Shown here: positions 1,197 to 12,501 of the stretch, piece by piece | How positions within the stretch are numbered: the stretch's first letter is position 1 | Layout: the number at the start of each line of letters is the position of its first letter | DNA from: a virus | Taxonomy: Duplodnaviria; Heunggongvirae; Uroviricota; Caudoviricetes | DNA length: 13,420 bases | Direction: 5' to 3' (one strand) | Virus record (IMG/VR): IMGVR_UViG_2695420863_000013 | Notes under the pieces: model-generated | What the model was told of the DNA's origin: nothing | Databases searched by the model: none | The model's input: only the letters and a program-made list of their open reading frames with translations | Translations under genes and position numbers: made by a program

Positions 1197-1273
1197 TGGT
1201 GCGTTGTACTGGGTTCGAACCAGTGACCGATTGCTTAGAAGGCAATTGCTCTGTCCGGCTGAGCTAAAAACGC
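1197..1273 (-). tRNA. argO: tRNA-Arg (anticodon TCT), 77 nt with encoded CCA
   Basis: Minus-strand cloverleaf: D stem GCTC/GAGC, anticodon stem ATTGC/GCAAT with loop CTTCTAA, T loop TTCGAAC, 3' CCA. One T-C mismatch in the acceptor stem. Symbol inferred from the ileZ-argN-argO order known in lambdoid/Stx phages. Confidence 0.75.
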
Positions 1274-1286
1274 AGAATACCGATAA

Positions 1287-1363
1287 TGGACCGCCATCGG
1301 AGACTCGAACCCCGCGAAACCAGCTTCGAAGGCTGGCGTTCTATCCCGATGAGCTAATGGCGG
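1287..1363 (-). tRNA. argN: tRNA-Arg (anticodon TCG), 77 nt with encoded CCA
   Basis: Minus-strand cloverleaf: perfect acceptor stem CCGCCAT/ATGGCGG (C1-G72), anticodon stem CCAGC/GCTGG with loop CTTCGAA, T loop TTCGAGT, 3' CCA. One mismatch in the D stem. Symbol assigned by order only. Confidence 0.7.
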
Positions 1364-1370
1364 TATGTGA

Positions 1371-1446
1371 TGGTGGCCCTTGCTGGATTTGAACCAGCGG
1401 CCTGGCGATTATGAGTCGCTCGCTCTCACCACTGAGCTAAAGGGCC
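1371..1446 (-). tRNA. ileZ: tRNA-Ile2 (anticodon CAT, lysidine type), 76 nt with encoded CCA
   Basis: Minus strand reads GGCCCTTTAGCTCAGTGGTGAGAGCGAGCGACTCATAATCGCCAGGCCGCTGGTTCAAATCCAGCAAGGGCCACCA. Near-identical in architecture to E. coli tRNA-Ile2 (ileX/ileY) as recalled; perfect acceptor stem. Confidence 0.85.
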
Positions 1447-2708: not shown

Positions 2709-3764
2709 TTATGCTTTCCACTTCAGGACGCCCGAATTTCTCGCGTGCATTAAAAAACGAATCAGCAACAACAGCTGGCTGCCGTGTTTTTCTTCAAAAT
2801 CTTTTACCCCGGCGTGCAGTTCGTTATGACATTTACGGCACAGCGGAATAACAAACAAATCGTCAGCCTTCGTTCCCATCCCTCCTAGTCCATGACCAAT
2901 GATGTGATGCGGATCATCTGCCTGATTGTCACACGTCATGCATTTCTGCGTTTTTACCCAGCGCGTGTATACGGGCATCTCTTCCCGTTGTGGTTTCTGG
3001 CGCTGGAGATACTGAGCCGGTGACTCCGGATCAACGGCAATGCTTACCACCGTCTTTTCCTGTGGCGGGTTTTGCTGGTGGGCGTGAGGCATCGGCGCAA
3101 GATTTTTTGTGCGCTGCTTCAGTATGCTGGTGGCGGTCTGCTCTCCCGGCACGATGTCGCTTTCACGGTACATTGAGCGGATTTTTTCCGCACGCAACCC
3201 CAGCGAACGACGTAATACCGCTTCCGGTAGCGCGTCCGCCACCTGATTGCGGACCGCCCACCAGGATAATTCAGCCAGCGATAATTCCCGTTCCTGCGAG
3301 CCATTCATTGCATGGCGTATGACGTCAATCATCCATGCAGACAGGTTTTGGTGAGCAAGTTGCCCGAGTGATTCGGAGGTCTGGTCGCGCAGCTGGTTGT
3401 CGCAGTGCCAGCACAACACCATTGCGCCGGTACCATAACGGTGAATGACGGTTTCACTGTGGTGATAATCGCCGTGTGGCCACTGGCAGGATTTAACATG
3501 GCGCAGTAACCAATCAGACAATGCGCCAGCGCCACCAGCAGCACGAATCACTCGTTCGTCGCTGAAAAATGGCAGTAATGATTTATCCTCCGCCAGCGGC
3601 TGGCGAACGGCAGGAACGACCCCGGACGGCAGATTACGCATGCTTTTCGGTTCCGGCTCCACCAGTACCCGGGTATTGTGGAATACCGGCATGGATTCAC
3701 GGCCCGGCTTAACGATCACCAGCCCGAGTTCCGGTACCAGAACAGGTCGAAGTAATACCCGCAC
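2709..3764 (-). CDS. DUF968-type phage protein (YdfU-like) with a C-terminal HNH nuclease motif
   Basis: 351-aa ORF with GTG start at 3764 preceded by GGAGGT Shine-Dalgarno. C-terminus has CMTCDNQ...HHIIGH...CRKCHNELH (CxxC...HH...CxxCHxxxH, HNH-like). Same position as ydfU in the Qin prophage (quuQ-ydfU-rem-hokD), as recalled. Confidence 0.6.
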   Translation of the reverse strand: MRVLLRPVLVPELGLVIVKPGRESMPVFHNTRVLVEPEPKSMRNLPSGVVPAVRQPLAEDKSLLPFFSDERVIRAAGGAGALSDWLLRHVKSCQWPHGDYHHSETVIHRYGTGAMVLCWHCDNQLRDQTSESLGQLAHQNLSAWMIDVIRHAMNGSQERELSLAELSWWAVRNQVADALPEAVLRRSLGLRAEKIRSMYRESDIVPGEQTATSILKQRTKNLAPMPHAHQQNPPQEKTVVSIAVDPESPAQYLQRQKPQREEMPVYTRWVKTQKCMTCDNQADDPHHIIGHGLGGMGTKADDLFVIPLCRKCHNELHAGVKDFEEKHGSQLLLLIRFLMHARNSGVLKWKA

Positions 3765-4402: not shown

Positions 4403-5101
4403 CTAACCTAACTGGTGGGCGTGAGGCATCGGCGCAAGATTTTTTGTGCGCTGCTTCAGTATGCTGGTGGCGGTCTGCTCTCCCGGCACGATGTCGCTTT
4501 CACGGTACATTGAGCGGATTTTTTCCGCACGCAACCCCAGCGAACGACGTAATACCGCTTCCGGTAGCGCGTCCGCCACCTGATTGCGGACCGCCCACCA
4601 GGATAATTCAGCCAGAGATAATTCACGCTCCTGCGTACCGCTTATTGCGTGACCGATGACGTCAATCATCCATGCTGACAGGTTTTGATGAGCAAGTTGC
4701 CCGAGTGATTCGGAGGTCTGGTCACGCAACTGGTTGTCGCAGTGCCAGCACAACACCATTGCGCCGGTACCATAACGGTGAATGACGGTTTCGCTGTGAT
4801 GATAATCGCCGTGTGGCCACTGGCAGGATTTAATATGGCGCAACAGCCAGTCAGACAATGCACCAGCACCACCAGCAGCACGAATCACCCGTGCGTTACT
4901 GAAAAACGGCAGCAATGTTTTGTCTTCCACCAGCGGCTGGCGAACGGCAGGAACGACCCCGGACGGCAGATTACGCATGCTTTTCGGTTCCGGCTCCACC
5001 AGTACCCGGGTATTGTGGAATACCGGCATGGATTCACGGCCCGGCTTAACGATCACCAGCCCGAGTTCCGGTACCAGAACAGGTCGAAGTAATACCCGCA
5101 C
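4403..5101 (-). CDS. Truncated DUF968 paralog (232 aa; lacks the C-terminal HNH region), probable gene remnant
   Basis: N-terminal ~230 aa nearly identical to the 2709..3764 protein, then ends at TAG 4403-4405 exactly where homology to the hok cassette begins. GTG start at 5101 abuts the upstream gene's stop. Confidence 0.6.
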   Translation of the reverse strand: MRVLLRPVLVPELGLVIVKPGRESMPVFHNTRVLVEPEPKSMRNLPSGVVPAVRQPLVEDKTLLPFFSNARVIRAAGGAGALSDWLLRHIKSCQWPHGDYHHSETVIHRYGTGAMVLCWHCDNQLRDQTSESLGQLAHQNLSAWMIDVIGHAISGTQERELSLAELSWWAVRNQVADALPEAVLRRSLGLRAEKIRSMYRESDIVPGEQTATSILKQRTKNLAPMPHAHQLG

Positions 5102-5420
5102 GTTACCTCCAGATGCGTTGCTGGAATGTGCGGGACGGACGCGGTGGGCGTTCGGAATAAGGGAGTCTGACGTAGATTATCCAGTGACGATAATCGAGGG
5201 TGAGGGCTTTCCTAAACTCATATCCACGTCTGCGGTAGTTATGAATCAGCCATTCGGCCTGTTCTTCAGTACAGGGATCGTGCTGATACCAGTCATATTT
5301 GAATGCGTGAGAACGCCACCCGTGCCTGCTGGCAAAGGCAGAATCAGAATTGCGAAATTTGAAATTATGCGCCATTGTCATCTCCAATGGCGCTGCAGGT
5401 TGCCAGTTGTTCAGGCTGGC
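4413..5420. repeat. Direct repeat copy B of the same ~1-kb segment
   Basis: Pairs with 3067-4080; junction with the hok cassette at 4404-4412. Confidence 0.7.
5103..5375 (-). CDS. Small basic phage protein (Rem-like position), copy 2 of a paralogous pair
   Basis: ATG at 5375 (MAHNFKFRNSDSAFASRHGWRS...) with GGAG 6 nt upstream; C-terminal half closely matches copy 1 (…LDYRHWII.VRLPYSERPPRPSRTFQQRIWR). Confidence 0.5.
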   Translation of the reverse strand: MAHNFKFRNSDSAFASRHGWRSHAFKYDWYQHDPCTEEQAEWLIHNYRRRGYEFRKALTLDYRHWIIYVRLPYSERPPRPSRTFQQRIWR

Positions 5421-5434
5421 TCACGTATTATAAC

Positions 5435-5608
5435 TTATTCCCGAACTACCTTGAAACCGAGTCTTTCCAAGTATTCAATGAATGCCTCAACAGATAACAC
5501 TACATGATCATCAGGAATTAACGCTGTGTAGGTAATACCCCCATTCTCAACGCGCACAGCATAGAGGCCATCTTCACTAAAAATTTCACGTAATTCTTCG
5601 ATTTTCAT
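5435..5608 (-). CDS. Hypothetical small protein (57 aa)
   Basis: ATG at 5608 with AAGGA Shine-Dalgarno 8 nt upstream; MKIEELREIFSEDGLYAVRVENGGITYTALIPDDHVVLSVEAFIEYLERLGFKVVRE. No family recognised. Confidence 0.45.
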   Translation of the reverse strand: MKIEELREIFSEDGLYAVRVENGGITYTALIPDDHVVLSVEAFIEYLERLGFKVVRE

Positions 5609-5691
5609 CAACAGAATCCTTCCAGATAAATAGCACTCCCCCTGTTCGGGGTCCATCCCTCTTCTCCCTGCGCGCTACTTAAGTATTTTTG

Positions 5692-5721
5692 ATTCTATTC
5701 TGGCACCGTCCAAAACTTCAA
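5692..5721 (-). promoter_or_regulatory. Candidate sigma-70 promoter for the 57-aa ORF (TTGAAG -18- TAGAAT)
   Basis: Minus strand has -35 TTGAAG (5721..5716), an 18-nt spacer, and -10 TAGAAT (5697..5692), just downstream of the module terminator. Confidence 0.3.
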
Positions 5722-5729
5722 ACACGTTG

Positions 5730-5761
5730 AAAATAAAAACAAAAAACCCGCCGAAGCGGGT
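5730..5761 (-). terminator. Intrinsic terminator downstream of the HTH-peptidase gene (copy 2 of a repeated hairpin)
   Basis: Hairpin ACCCGC-CGAA-GCGGGT (5746-5761) followed on the minus strand by TTTTTTGTTTTTATTTT; starts 5 nt after the 5766 stop. Confidence 0.7.
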
Positions 5762-5765
5762 ATAC

Positions 5766-6869
5766 TCAAACAATCTGGAAAATATTTCTTGGATTTGTAA
5801 TAGGTCTGTTGATGGAGAACAACTCACGAATTAAATCTTGGCTCAAGCCAGTTTTCATAAGAATTCTTAGCCAGGTTGCATCATCCAGCATTTCAATCGC
5901 CTCGGCCAGCATGCCGGGTTCTTCAGGGCGCAAAAGTTCATCACCAGGTTCAACTCTCGTATACCCTCTGGAATTAAGATGCATATAGCCAGTTCTTGCC
6001 TGTTCCTGGGTCAATAAGCCTAATGCGCTGGCTCGATAAATACACATTTTAAGGCTGATTTTCCATCTAAGTTTAAATTCAACCAGAGCATTCCAGTCGA
6101 ATTGCTTACCTCGTATTCGTGGAAATTCTTTAATGAAAGATAACCTGGGAACTAATAAGGCGCTCGAAAAGTGATCGGCTTGTGATTCCGTAAGTTTATC
6201 ACCTGTCGTTATGCCCTCATGCATTACTAAATGCCCTAATTCATGACCTAAATCAGAGCGAAATCTACATATGCTTTTTTTAACATTGTTCCTGATGATA
6301 ACAGGCCTGTTATTGTGAACAGTAAAAGCATCAACACGATCATCGACTCCCGTAACATGCGCAACGATTACCCCTAAACTCTCCGCCAATTTAACCATTG
6401 ATGATATAGGGCCAAGACCTAAATTCCAGGCACGGCGACAATCTTCTGCCACTCGCTCAATATCATTCGGAGTAAGTAATTCAGCCCCTGGGTGCTCCGG
6501 TATGTTAACGTCAGGAAATTCGATTTCACCTTCAACAGCAGAAATTATAATATTAAGAATCTCAGCCCTGGCCAATACACTATTAGTCAGCGTTTGAGTC
6601 CTGGACTTCTTACTCCGAAAATGGCAGACATCACTTTCCAGAGCGTATTTTCGTTCAGTAAAAAGAAAACTGGACTTAATCATAAGCGCTGAAGATATTA
6701 ACTCAAGACATTGCTCCGATGGCCTGCACCCCTTCTCCAGTTTGCTAACGAATTGCTTTGTCTTGCCAATTTTTTCGGCTAACTCTTCACAAGAAAGCCC
6801 AACAGCCATTCTCGCTAGTTTGAGCTTATCACCCCGATACTCAGTGAAGTTATTCACCTGATGTTCCAT
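5766..6869 (-). CDS. XRE-family HTH fused to an ImmA/IrrE-type (COG2856, Peptidase_M78-like) zinc metallopeptidase
   Basis: N-terminal HTH (LKLARMAVGLSCEELAEKIGKTKQFVSKLEKG). HEXXH zinc motif in RSDLGHELGHLVMHEG, and the downstream signature ESQADHFSSALLVP typical of COG2856. Start probably ATG 6869 (track gives GTG 6872); overlaps the upstream gene by about 20 nt. AT-rich relative to flanks. Confidence 0.75.
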   Translation of the reverse strand: MEHQVNNFTEYRGDKLKLARMAVGLSCEELAEKIGKTKQFVSKLEKGCRPSEQCLELISSALMIKSSFLFTERKYALESDVCHFRSKKSRTQTLTNSVLARAEILNIIISAVEGEIEFPDVNIPEHPGAELLTPNDIERVAEDCRRAWNLGLGPISSMVKLAESLGVIVAHVTGVDDRVDAFTVHNNRPVIIRNNVKKSICRFRSDLGHELGHLVMHEGITTGDKLTESQADHFSSALLVPRLSFIKEFPRIRGKQFDWNALVEFKLRWKISLKMCIYRASALGLLTQEQARTGYMHLNSRGYTRVEPGDELLRPEEPGMLAEAIEMLDDATWLRILMKTGLSQDLIRELFSINRPITNPRNIFQIV

Positions 6870-7500
6870 CACTGCTCACATCCAAATCTTTATCCTTCGT
6901 ACGCCGACGAAGAGGCACCTTATTAATCTCCGCTTCGTCAGGGAGTGTGTTATAATCAAGAGGCATAAGCGGCATCGATGCTGTAGATTGATGAGAAACT
7001 ATACTAATCTGAGCACCATAAGTATTAAATCCAACAAGAGCTACCTCCCAACGAGGCAGTGTGGACTCTAATTCACCATCGCCCTCTTCGGATAAAAAAG
7101 GCTCAGCTATGACTCGCCATGTAATATCTTGCTCAGCCTCAACATCACCAAACAATGAGAGCTGCTCATACTCTACTTTATTTCGACGCAGACGATGTTT
7201 CTTTTTGGGGTTATTAATGCAATCTTTGGTAAATTGTAGCGGAACTTTATTTAAAGCAACTACATAGTCCAACCCCTTGGAAATCATCTCAAGGCCAGGA
7301 ATTGCATCTTCATTTTGAATAAGATGATTTCTGACCCAATCATAAGCCCTTACACCTTCAGACCAGTTGCTGTCTAATGCGTGCTTATGATAGTACAGCT
7401 GCTCAAGTACGTTAGCGATCTCCGCCAACAAGTGGCGAACATAGTTTTCAGCAAGATAAGGTTGAAATTCCCAACAAGGAGCTAACTGATTTTCATTCAT
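6850..7500 (-). CDS. Hypothetical 216-aa protein, first gene of the two-gene module (candidate effector/toxin)
   Basis: ATG at 7500 (MNENQLAPCWEFQPYLAENYVRHLL...). No recognisable motif; has a basic patch KKKHRLRRNK and an acidic C-terminus. AT-rich. Translationally overlaps the HTH-peptidase gene. Confidence 0.55.
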   Translation of the reverse strand: MNENQLAPCWEFQPYLAENYVRHLLAEIANVLEQLYYHKHALDSNWSEGVRAYDWVRNHLIQNEDAIPGLEMISKGLDYVVALNKVPLQFTKDCINNPKKKHRLRRNKVEYEQLSLFGDVEAEQDITWRVIAEPFLSEEGDGELESTLPRWEVALVGFNTYGAQISIVSHQSTASMPLMPLDYNTLPDEAEINKVPLRRRTKDKDLDVSSDGTSGE

Positions 7501-7535
7501 TTCAAGTTTCGCTTTTTTTAGAATTCGTAAACCAC

Positions 7536-7564
7536 ATATTTTCGCATTTTTCTATTTTTGTCAA
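7536..7564 (-). promoter_or_regulatory. Candidate promoter for the two-gene module (perfect -35 TTGACA, weak -10)
   Basis: Minus strand has TTGACA (7564..7559), a 17-nt spacer, and AAATAT (7541..7536), about 35 nt upstream of the 7500 start. The -10 is poor, so the call is tentative. Confidence 0.3.
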
Positions 7565-7573
7565 CCAGACTAA

Positions 7574-7597
7574 TGCAAAAACCCGCCGAAGCGGGTT
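7574..7597 (-). terminator. Intrinsic terminator downstream of hok copy 2 (copy 3 of a repeated hairpin)
   Basis: Hairpin AACCCGC-CGAA-GCGGGTT (7580-7597) with a short U-tract (5 T) on the minus strand. Confidence 0.5.
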
Positions 7598-7858
7598 AAG
7601 TGCGGGTGCGTTGAGGATGCCTGGCACATCAGAGGTGGCGGGAGATTACTCCCCCGCCGGGTCTCTTACTCCTCAGGTTCGTAAGCTGTGAAGACAGCGA
7701 CCTCCGTCTGGCCGGTTCGGATTCGTACCTCGCAGAGGTCTTTCCTCGTTACCAGTGCCGTCACAATGACGGTTAAACAGATGACGATCAGGGCGATTAA
7801 CATCGCCTTTTGCTGCTTCATAGCCTGCTTCCCCTTGCCTTTCGGCACGTAAGAGGCT
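7580..7858. repeat. hok cassette repeat (terminator hairpin + hok + ~40 nt upstream), second copy; first copy at 4126-4404
   Basis: About 279 bp nearly identical between 4126-4404 and 7580-7858, including the hairpin and the whole hok ORF; homology ends at ggctaacct on the upstream side in both copies. Confidence 0.75.
7666..7821 (-). CDS. hok: Hok-family type I toxin (HokD/RelF-like), copy 2
   Basis: 51-aa MKQQKAMLIALIVICLTVIVTALVTRKDLCEVRIRTGQTEVAVFTAYEPEE, identical to HokD/RelF as recalled. Start set at the MKQQ methionine with a GGGGAAG Shine-Dalgarno-like element upstream. Confidence 0.85.
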   Translation of the reverse strand: MKQQKAMLIALIVICLTVIVTALVTRKDLCEVRIRTGQTEVAVFTAYEPEE

Positions 7859-8058
7859 AACCTACATTTGTGAGACATAGATTGGGCCTCAGATTAATGT
7901 TAAGCGTCTTGCAGGACGCGAAATGTTAACTGGGGCTTTTCTCTATCTGCCTTTCAGTGTTCATGCCTGAGACAGATAGCCTCAAGCACCCGCAGCCATT
8001 CTACTTAACTCACGTCACCTCGCCAATATGAAATCAATCAGAAAGGTGATCCATAAAA

Positions 8059-8745
8059 TCACTCCTTCTCTTCTTTTCCGTAGTGGAGTTGGCCAATTTT
8101 GATAAGAGGGCGTCCCTGAGATTTGCGGTGTAGATTGGTATCGCGCAGAGAATACACACAGCCACAATATTCCTGCTGATAGAATTTTTCGCGCTTGCTG
8201 ATTTCAATCATACGGGACGAGCCGCCCTGCTTGCGCCAGTTATAATCCCAGTACACCATACCCGGATAATGCGCAACAGCTCGCCGCCCACACTCGTTAA
8301 CCTGCTGCATATTTTTCCAGCGTGAAATGCCCAGTGAACTGCTGATCACACTGAAACCATTTTCAGCAGCGTACAACGCTGTCCGCTCAAAACGCATGTC
8401 AAAACACATGGTACAACGGATCCCCCTCTCAGGCTCCCATTCCATTCCTTTGGCACGTTCAAACCAGTTGTCGGTGTCGTAATCAGCATCGATAAACGGC
8501 ACGCCGTGTTGTTCAGCAAAGCGAATATTTTCATCCTTACGAATTAAATACTCTTTCTGAGGATGAATGTTCGGGTTGTAGAAAAAGATGGTGTAGTCGA
8601 TTCCCGAGGCCTGAAGCGCCTCCATCACTTCACCGGAACATGGAGCACAGCAAGAGTGCAGTAGTAGTTTGTTTGCCCCGTTTGGGAGCTCCAATTTAGG
8701 CCGTTTGAAATCAGCAATAGTCATAAATATTTTTATTGGGGTCAT
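8059..8745 (-). CDS. DUF208/QueH-like protein (putative epoxyqueuosine reductase family)
   Basis: 228-aa ORF with an N-terminal [11 protein letters not shown] motif and a C-terminal [11 protein letters not shown] motif, which I recall as characteristic of QueH. No good Shine-Dalgarno at either candidate ATG (8745 or 8724). Confidence 0.55.
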
Positions 8746-11709: not shown

Positions 11710-12135
11710 TCAATGCACAGCCACAATATTTCCTGCAGGGCCACCACGATTCATCTGGTTGAAACCAGCGATCGCCACTGCGACAAAATCATCAGCGTCT
11801 CTCACCAGTCGTTCCCGCGTCTCCACCAGCTCCCGAAAATAAGCTGAACTGTGGCTGCGCATTCGGGCCACCAGCAGAGGCGGCATTGCTTTTTCGATCG
11901 CTGGTAACAACGCCTGAATTTTTTTAACCGCATCAGGAGTGTCTTTCTCCACCCAGCGGAAAATTTTCTGGGTATTGCGAGCCAGGGCTTCCGGATGGCT
12001 GTCGTCATATAATTCCGGGAACGTCATACCAAGCTCAAAATAAGCCCGGGTTATTTCAGCTGCCGGAACTTTTTCACCGTCCGGATGCGCCCAGGCATTC
12101 ATCGCCATGCGGATGTGCTCATGCCTGATTTTCAT
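11710..12135 (-). CDS. YdaT-like protein (CII-position protein of Rac-type prophages)
   Basis: 141-aa MKIRHEHIRMAMNAW...KIQALLPAIEKAMPP...NIVAVH. Start and end pattern and length match Rac YdaT as recalled. GGAG Shine-Dalgarno 9 nt upstream; overlaps the upstream HTH gene by 17 nt. Confidence 0.6.
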   Translation of the reverse strand: MKIRHEHIRMAMNAWAHPDGEKVPAAEITRAYFELGMTFPELYDDSHPEALARNTQKIFRWVEKDTPDAVKKIQALLPAIEKAMPPLLVARMRSHSSAYFRELVETRERLVRDADDFVAVAIAGFNQMNRGGPAGNIVAVH

Positions 12136-12394
12136 GAATCAACTCCGATGCATTTGGTGTGTTAGCCTTGAATCCAACAGGTAAGCCGTCGGTTGGATTC
12201 GGGTAAATATCAGGCCGGAGTTCATGAGGTGTAACCTCGAAATTCGTTACTTCAGCAACACGTAATGCTTTTTCAGGGCTGAATCTTTCATAGCCCCCCA
12301 GCACTCGACTTACATGCACCTGAGATAAACCCGTTAGCTTCCCAAACTGTAGCTGGGTGATATGTTTCTCTTTTAAATAGTCTCTTAAGTTCAT
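12119..12394 (-). CDS. Cro/YdaS-like HTH regulator
   Basis: ATG at 12394 (MNLRDYLKEKHITQLQFGKLTGLSQVHVSRVLGG...) with GAAGG Shine-Dalgarno (track ORF starts at TTG 12400). HTH motif; first gene of the leftward early operon, divergent from the repressor. Confidence 0.65.
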   Translation of the reverse strand: MNLRDYLKEKHITQLQFGKLTGLSQVHVSRVLGGYERFSPEKALRVAEVTNFEVTPHELRPDIYPNPTDGLPVGFKANTPNASELIHENQA

Positions 12395-12501
12395 AGCCAA
12401 CCTTCTACGTTATGCCTCGAGCAAATATTAGCCCCGCTAATTTTAAAGATCAATAGCCAGACTATCTTTGATAATATTGGTAAAACAAATAAACTCTATG
12501 T
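12395..12501. promoter_or_regulatory. Divergent immunity-switch region (operators and promoters between the Cro-like gene and the repressor)
   Basis: 107-bp AT-rich intergenic region between divergent HTH genes; contains the palindrome ATTAGC-CCC-GCTAAT (12427-12441) and a TAATAT -10-like element upstream of the repressor start. Confidence 0.5.

Follow-up and report, generated by a model that had tools for sequence, protein, structure and literature searches.

We describe a two-gene cassette, rmrT-rmrA, in a 13,420-nucleotide (nt) stretch of viral DNA (IMG/VR record IMGVR_UViG_2695420863_000013, analysed at its whole length and here called the window; positions refer to the window unless residues are named). 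In our reading, to which we assign a probability of about 0.6, the two genes form a toxin-antitoxin cassette of the Rosmer (RmrTA) type that is optional prophage cargo, with a toxin that would block the beta sliding clamp and with a role in phage defence and/or addiction. The parts of this statement are not equally firm. The assignment to the Rosmer toxin-antitoxin systems we hold to be very likely correct, an anti-phage role for this particular RmrT subfamily, argued by analogy, is slightly favoured, and the beta sliding clamp as the target of RmrT, suggested by a sequence motif and by analogy, is a tentative proposal at a little under even odds.

At the level of sequence, the pair has every mark of a Rosmer system. 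For the product of the first gene (216 amino acids, aa), the match to the PADLOC RmrT profile PDLC03929 (E = 4.6e-25) is full-length, residues 7-209 being aligned with positions 5-195 of the 198 in the profile; the protein also matches PHROG 5786, a family of unknown function (E = 8e-85). The 367-aa product of the second gene matches the PADLOC RmrA profile PDLC03943 (E = 6.2e-105, residues 11-350), 13 further RmrA models and, in PHROGs, phrog_2439. Pfam places an HTH_3 domain (helix-turn-helix, HTH) at residues 16-62 (E = 5e-7) and a Peptidase_M78 domain at residues 176-281 (E = 6.5e-11) of this protein, both above the cut-offs, and its C-terminal part is a helical region. The predicted zinc-binding HELGH motif is followed by the E..AD.F..LL.P signature, present as TESQADHFSSALLVP, and the five RmrA homologues that we aligned all have H209, E210, H213 and E228. 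Among solved structures, a search by sequence for relatives of RmrA returned HTH matches only. A preliminary description of this DNA had already read the second gene as an XRE-type HTH fused to an ImmA-IrrE peptidase with both of these motifs, and had thought of a Rosmer-type HTH-peptidase module; the Pfam domains, the individual residues and the PADLOC models, which call the pair RmrT plus RmrA, bear this out. Its view of the 216-aa partner as an unrecognised and possibly undescribed effector has to be given up, given the matches to PDLC03929 and PHROG 5786 and the homology to the toxic protein Vmi480 presented below.

RmrT belongs to a family of small proteins that are all named hypothetical. 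A profile search of 1.8 billion representative proteins yielded 69 clusters at E <= 0.001, nearly all of them about 200 aa long, from Enterobacterales, Vibrio, Aeromonas, Pseudomonas, Photobacterium and Pseudovibrio, and nine more distant members that we checked all match PDLC03929 (9/9). No Pfam family matched the 216-aa protein or any of the 71 family members, no relative of RmrT with a solved structure was found by sequence, and the E101 toxin (WP_001179380.1) was not identified among the family clusters. Literature searches with the RefSeq accessions WP_001004956 and WP_000401168 returned no matches. RmrT is a soluble and acidic protein (isoelectric point 4.9, grand average of hydropathy -0.54) without a transmembrane segment. 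An AlphaFold2 model built on the 71-sequence alignment reached a mean predicted local distance difference test (pLDDT) score of 83.9. In this model, two long helices lead into three strands, after which come one helix, three further strands and a C-terminal tail that is disordered; D43, G49, E110 and R129 are near-invariant in the alignment. A membrane-depolarising toxin of the Kita RmrT type was considered as well and rejected, as the maximum over 19-residue Kyte-Doolittle windows is 0.84 and a membrane segment is absent.

The roles of the two genes can be read from a pair that has been tested. Luo et al. (2015, PMC4671572) found vmi480 (198 aa) of the Vibrio mimicus island MGIVmi1 to kill E. 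coli, and vmi470, separated from it by a 5-bp spacer and encoding a 362-aa protein with an HTH and a zinc peptidase, rescues the cells and is not deletable alone (PMC4671572). To obtain sequences for this pair, we scanned a genome collection with the published cloning primer from the supplement of PMC4671572 and recovered two loci with genes of 198 and 362 aa, a 5-bp spacer and ends that match all four primers. We infer the identity of this orthologue with Vmi480 itself, because the link consists of primer matches and the sequence comes from Vibrio thalassae. Identity to the Vmi480 orthologue is 26% for window RmrT (E = 7e-15; hhalign probability 98.7%), and window RmrA and the Vmi470-like antitoxin share 47% of their residues (E = 1e-123). 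The Vmi480/Vmi470-like proteins match the same PADLOC models as the window pair. By this homology with the lethal Vmi480 and the rescuing Vmi470, rmrT and rmrA of the window would act as toxin and antitoxin, respectively. Rousset et al. (bioRxiv 10.1101/2020.05.25.114553) described a further pair from an E. coli prophage, with identities of 33% and 42% to Vmi480 and Vmi470, in which the toxin makes clpP essential.

Wherever we met the toxin family, its gene had the same kind of partner, as shown here for nine loci with toxins about 26-63% identical to window RmrT: in 9/9, the toxin gene is directly followed by a gene for an HTH plus M78 protein of 362-376 aa. The order of a toxin gene and an overlapping HTH plus M78 gene recurs in Proteus, in Serratia, in a Mu-like phage and at a chromosomal locus. 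The homologous pairs occupy the nin region in Proteus prophages, the interval between Q and the holin gene in Serratia, that between Mor and the lysis genes in the Mu-like phage, and a non-phage chromosomal site on a metagenome contig. In E. coli FDAARGOS_1249 (locus L014, 1651-3210), an IS5 element lies within rmrT and leaves a 140-aa remnant while rmrA is intact, a natural toxin knock-out that fits rmrT being the harmful gene.

The element hosting the cassette is a Qin/Rac-like lambdoid prophage of E. coli, in which the minus strand carries, in this order, the repressor/YdaS/YdaT genes, replication genes, QueH, hokD with the sok RNA, rmrT-rmrA, DUF968, RusA, Q and tRNA genes; the cassette is therefore part of the nin-like region, with hokD/sok on one side and DUF968-RusA-Q on the other. 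With a 1,921-nt query, the module was found at a coverage of at least 80% in 237 of 5,426 complete E. coli genomes; its flanks occur in 3,948. A synthetic empty site, made by joining window positions 5300-5761 to 7597-8050 (5762-7596 deleted, one repeat copy kept), matched 66 E. coli genomes at a coverage of at least 80%, and the 15 matches listed are single pieces that span the junction. In the alignment with strain 025542-1, a single repeat copy is all that stands between the two flanks. By these two results, the cassette is a clean insertion/deletion of 1,835 bp with the hokD terminator sequence at its ends; the module is therefore not core to this phage group. Among 50,697 phage genome records, the DNA search gave just 45 nt of the terminator and the translated search no protein match.

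The two boundaries of the cassette consist of an exact 20-nt direct repeat, AAAAACCCGCCGAAGCGGGT, each copy of which is scored as a minus-strand hairpin resembling a terminator (Table 1). The two co-oriented genes overlap by 20 nt. For rmrA, the open reading frame (ORF) list gives 5766..6872(-) with a GTG start and 368 aa; the RefSeq start is the ATG at 6869, yielding 367 aa. The content of guanine plus cytosine (GC) of the cassette is 41.7% (35-38% at third codon positions, GC3), compared with 54.1% in the left and 51.7% in the right flank and a GC3 of 51-60% in the flanking genes. The AT-rich zone extends past the cassette to about position 5400 (42.8% GC in this outer part) and is wider than the insertion because a 73-aa ORF is kept in cassette-free prophages. 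Four further statements of the preliminary description were thus found to be correct: the compact operon of two overlapping minus-strand genes, its higher AT content than that of the flanks (with the zone continuing leftwards), the two copies of one terminator hairpin around it, and the status of variable nin-like cargo, for which the genome counts, the exact empty site and the other positions in other phages speak. The 73-aa ORF itself (5435-5656, minus strand) is AT-rich, lies just outside the cassette and has no family match; in RefSeq, no more than a pseudogene fragment of 75 nt is annotated at this place. The immediate upstream neighbour of the cassette is a complete hok/sok type I toxin-antitoxin locus (7666-7991, minus strand) with a Hok/Gef ORF (Pfam E = 3e-23) and a sok RNA at 7816-7991 (Rfam RF01794, 120 bits), and it is the terminator of this locus whose sequence is duplicated at the cassette boundaries.

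The cassette also has a promoter region of its own. We compared six promoter loci (E. coli, Serratia, Proteus, the Mu-like phage, a Vmi480-like locus and the metagenome chromosome), taking the 80 nt upstream of each rmrT homologue (L003, L006, L007, L011, L013). The box GGTTGACAAAA is present upstream of rmrT in 6/6 loci, in the Mu-like locus (L006) as GATTGACAAAA with one mismatch; GTTTAC follows the box in 4/6, and locus L011 has two copies of CGGTTGAC upstream of its rmrT homologue. Throughout the window there are just two GGTTKACRAA sites, both in the promoter region, against 0.14 expected for this pattern, which was derived post hoc. A simple promoter scan of the window did not flag the site of the cassette promoter. 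Judged from sequence, the box copies GGTTGACAAA and GGTTTACGAA likely provide the -35 element and candidate operator half-sites for RmrA. With a conserved promoter and a terminator of its own, the 1.8-kb cassette forms an autonomous unit.

Table 1. Positions of the rmrT-rmrA cassette and its elements in the window.
Feature	Position	Strand	Basis or remark
Whole cassette, 1,835-bp insertion/deletion unit (promoter, rmrT, rmrA and one terminator-repeat copy)	5762..7596	(-)	Empty-site comparison
Upstream repeat copy, hokD terminator hairpin, right cassette boundary	7577..7596	(-)	Repeat/hairpin scan, empty-site alignment
Cassette promoter region (predicted)	7524..7566	(-)	Box conserved upstream of rmrT
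-35 element TTGACA	7559-7564	(-)	Inside GGTTGACAAA (7557-7566)
-10-like stretch, TGn + GAAAAT / AAATAT	7536-7546	(-)	
Second box copy GGTTTACGAA	7524-7533	(-)	33 nt downstream of the first
rmrT, predicted toxin, 216 aa, ATG start	6850..7500	(-)	ORF list; PADLOC
RmrT Q113-L-S-L-F117 codons, candidate beta-clamp-binding motif	7150..7164	(-)	Sequence match
rmrA, predicted antitoxin/regulator, 367 aa, ATG at 6869	5766..6869	(-)	RefSeq start
RmrA XRE helix-turn-helix	~6660-6833	(-)	Pfam HTH_3
RmrA M78/ImmA-IrrE zinc peptidase	~6027-6344	(-)	Pfam Peptidase_M78
HELGH (H209-H213), predicted zinc-binding catalytic motif	6231..6245	(-)	Read from sequence
Downstream repeat copy, terminator directly after the rmrA stop codon, left boundary	5742..5761	(-)	Repeat/hairpin scan, empty-site alignment

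A lead to the action of the toxin comes from the stretch QLSLF of RmrT, which lies at the end of the helix leading into a flexible acidic loop with lower pLDDT. The stretch agrees fully with the bacterial beta-clamp-binding consensus, QL(S/D)LF (PMC9690074). A QLxLF- or QLxLxL-type motif is found at the same aligned position in 57 of the 71 RmrT family members, against 2% in composition-matched shuffles; the variants in the family include QLSLPL, QLSLDL, QFSLF and QMSLL, the Vmi480 orthologue has QISLEL, and in the close RmrT family Q113 and F117 are invariant. A motif of this type recurs in the toxin family of OLC-716, a Rosmer system with verified defence activity: of its 21 members, 14 contain Q[LIM]x[LFI]x[LF] and a further 6 contain N[LY]D[LM]F (background 4%). 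There it is located, as QLKLDL with variants or as NLDLF, in one variable loop corresponding to residues 128-160 of OLC-716 RmrT. Genetic evidence exists for RipA, a pneumococcal toxin of the Rosmer type, which binds DnaN and whose toxicity is suppressed by changes in the DnaN hydrophobic pocket (PMC12795458); clpX is essential because of RipA, and no motif is mentioned in that paper (PMC12795458). The Caulobacter toxin SocB binds the clamp through the usual clamp-binding motif (PMC9690074). By analogy with RipA and SocB, the reading of RmrT that we favour most is a replication toxin that targets the clamp, and it is from this analogy that we infer DnaN binding. SocB is reportedly held down by ClpXP, with its antitoxin acting as the adaptor.

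The proposed mechanism would run as follows. RmrA would repress the cassette promoter via the repeated GGTTKAC sites. It would also hold RmrT in check, probably in a way that is linked to proteolysis and requires ClpXP as well, rather than by simple sequestration alone. Free RmrT would bind the hydrophobic cleft of DnaN via QLSLF and block DNA replication. An incoming phage that disturbs the balance between the two proteins would in this way set off a clamp blockade, and DNA synthesis in the infected cell would come to a halt, also for phages that depend on the host replisome, so that the infection would abort. For the prophage, the cassette would by the same token serve as an addiction module. 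A wider version of this scheme is somewhat more tentative still: the soluble Rosmer toxins, that is, the PDLC03929 family and the sequence-unrelated OLC-716 family, might all be clamp poisons that dock via a clamp-binding motif, and Rosmer might then represent a ClpXP-dependent replication arrest similar to SocAB, in which RmrA, taking the place of a simple adaptor, couples toxin turnover to the sensing of infection.

Several points weigh against this interpretation. The motif is not recognisable in 14 of the 71 RmrT members, and the hydrophobic QLSLF stretch could be a structural element of the RmrT fold. Rosmer toxins are heterogeneous, and the DnaN result for RipA therefore need not transfer to RmrT. 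We considered homology between window RmrT and OLC-716 RmrT and rejected it, since neither BLASTP (E = 7) nor hhalign (0.3% and 2.8%) gave significant similarity; the comparison of the two toxin family profiles was collinear and, at 2.8%, not significant. Anti-phage activity has been demonstrated just for Rosmer systems with other toxin families, namely OLC-716 and that of the Gordonia phage Kita, whose toxin depolarises the membrane. The Vmi480 orthologue used here stems from V. thalassae and not from strain VM573. Finally, in PD-lambda-2 the Xre-peptidase component is itself toxic, and caution is therefore required in assigning fixed roles across HTH-peptidase fusions.

The demonstrated phage ranges bear on a further question, whether the cassette is a plain addiction module that stabilises its prophage or island by post-segregational killing and has no part in phage defence. 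We regard this as unlikely, although the narrow phage ranges of published Rosmer systems keep a pure addiction role a real alternative. In its favour, Rosmer homologues in Streptococcus thermophilus were inefficient against most phages tested, the cassette always travels on mobile elements, and its closest tested relative, Vmi480/Vmi470, resides on a mobilisable genomic island and has been characterised solely as a toxin-antitoxin pair. Two Rosmer systems do protect against phages, however, and the cassette is found in classic prophage cargo (moron) sites beside conflict genes such as hok/sok. Moreover, addiction and abortive infection are not mutually exclusive.

Release of a nuclease in place of a clamp poison would be a different way to kill, and in the RmrT model the order helix, three strands, helix, strand would fit the core of the PD-(D/E)XK (restriction-endonuclease-like) fold, with DNA or RNA as the substrate. 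This appears improbable to us: Foldseek returned nothing significant (best E = 0.015; template modelling score of 0.25 to NaeI), no Pfam nuclease family matches any member of the RmrT family, and the catalytic positions, the D at the start of strand 2 (D78) and the (D/E)xK of strand 3, vary in the 71-member alignment. We have not filed RmrT as a nuclease because these PD-(D/E)XK catalytic positions are not conserved. Least credible of all is that the HTH-peptidase works as an ImmA/ImmR-like switch for prophage induction or gene expression with the 216-aa protein as an accessory factor and not a toxin. The M78 peptidases ImmA, IrrE and CapP do cleave XRE repressors and thereby turn on mobile-element or stress genes, and the cassette does belong to the early region. 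Against this, repressor/Cro-like genes are already present elsewhere in the prophage, closely related prophages precisely lack the cassette, the same pair occurs at unrelated positions (nin; Q-holin; Mor-lysis) and in non-phage DNA, and the homologous first gene, vmi480, is lethal when expressed alone.

Other parts of the prophage vary as well. The DUF968 gene is partly duplicated in tandem (2709-3764 and 4403-5101, minus strand), such that a truncated copy of 232 aa repeats the beginning of the full copy of 351 aa (96% identity over 230 aa). An ORF of 135 aa that belongs to no known family separates the two; the related prophages of E. coli 042 and ML35 have a single DUF968 copy. The early region contains an epoxyqueuosine reductase QueH gene (8059-8745, minus strand; Pfam E = 1e-65) that is missing from the otherwise similar E. 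coli 042 prophage. Downstream of Q, a cluster at 254-426 and 1197-1446 (minus strand) comprises three tRNA genes, Met-CAT according to ARAGORN (Ile in RefSeq), Arg-TCG and Arg-TCT, and a match to the small RNA STnc100 (Rfam, 100.8 bits). Adjoining the prophage repressor is a YdaS/YdaT pair (11710-12400, minus strand), named in RefSeq as an HTH protein and a 'toxin YdaT family protein'.

As an annotation, the cassette is ordinary: standard defence models already call it Rosmer, and hundreds of sequenced E. coli genomes have an identical copy. It is useful that the RmrT family is now tied to an experimentally toxic relative, Vmi480. The one point beyond routine annotation is the clamp-type motif common to the RmrT family and to a verified Rosmer toxin family; together with the published DnaN and ClpX/ClpP genetics, it makes the action of Rosmer toxins experimentally tractable. 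If true, the clamp-poison interpretation would explain how the toxins of a defence family act that have so far been listed as of 'unknown function'. Prophages with and without the cassette provide natural isogenic material for tests of defence and stability.

Among the systems with which the window pair can be compared, Vmi480/Vmi470 is alike in toxin family, antitoxin family, PADLOC models, gene order and the GGTTGACAAAA promoter box. It differs in being located on a mobilisable genomic island and in having a 5-bp spacer, where the window pair is in a prophage and overlaps by 20 nt, and its orthologue has the motif QISLEL in place of QLSLF. The E. coli system OLC-716 RosmerTA (verified by Millman et al. 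2022) likewise consists of two genes with the toxin first. Its RmrA resembles window RmrA in combining an XRE-HTH with an M78 domain in about 370 aa (29% identity over 301 aa, E = 2e-35), and both toxins are soluble, of about 215-240 aa and have a clamp-binding-like motif in a variable loop, whereas the OLC-716 toxin matches PADLOC PDLC03935 and that of the window PDLC03929. Toxicity and rescue experiments exist for Vmi480/Vmi470, and defence has been shown for OLC-716.

RipA/RipB (Spr1630/Spr1629) of Streptococcus pneumoniae (PMC12795458) also belongs to the Rosmer family and has an antitoxin with an XRE domain and an ImmA-like peptidase. The NCBIfam model spr1629 gave the only NCBIfam match of window RmrA (E = 1.5e-45, below the curated cut-off), and the NCBIfam scan of window RmrT matched no model, the RipA sequence itself not being part of the comparison. 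RipA acts on the DnaN hydrophobic pocket and is neutralised in a ClpX-dependent manner, in line with what we propose for RmrT; unlike the window cassette, RipA/RipB is chromosomal, in a Gram-positive host, linked to competence and not shown to act in phage defence. SocAB of Caulobacter crescentus, a type VI toxin-antitoxin system, may work in a similar way, a likeness that would concern the mechanism only; evidence of homology did not turn up, although no comparison aimed at SocA or SocB was made. SocA is a small adaptor without HTH or peptidase, unlike RmrA. ImmA/ImmR, IrrE/DdrO and CapP/CapH share with RmrA the M78/COG2856 zinc peptidase and the XRE HTH, and the PADLOC capP model matches RmrA with E = 1.6e-14. 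In these three systems, however, the HTH is on a protein of its own, a repressor that the protease cuts to switch genes on, whereas in the window RmrA the protease and the HTH are fused and paired with a predicted toxin.

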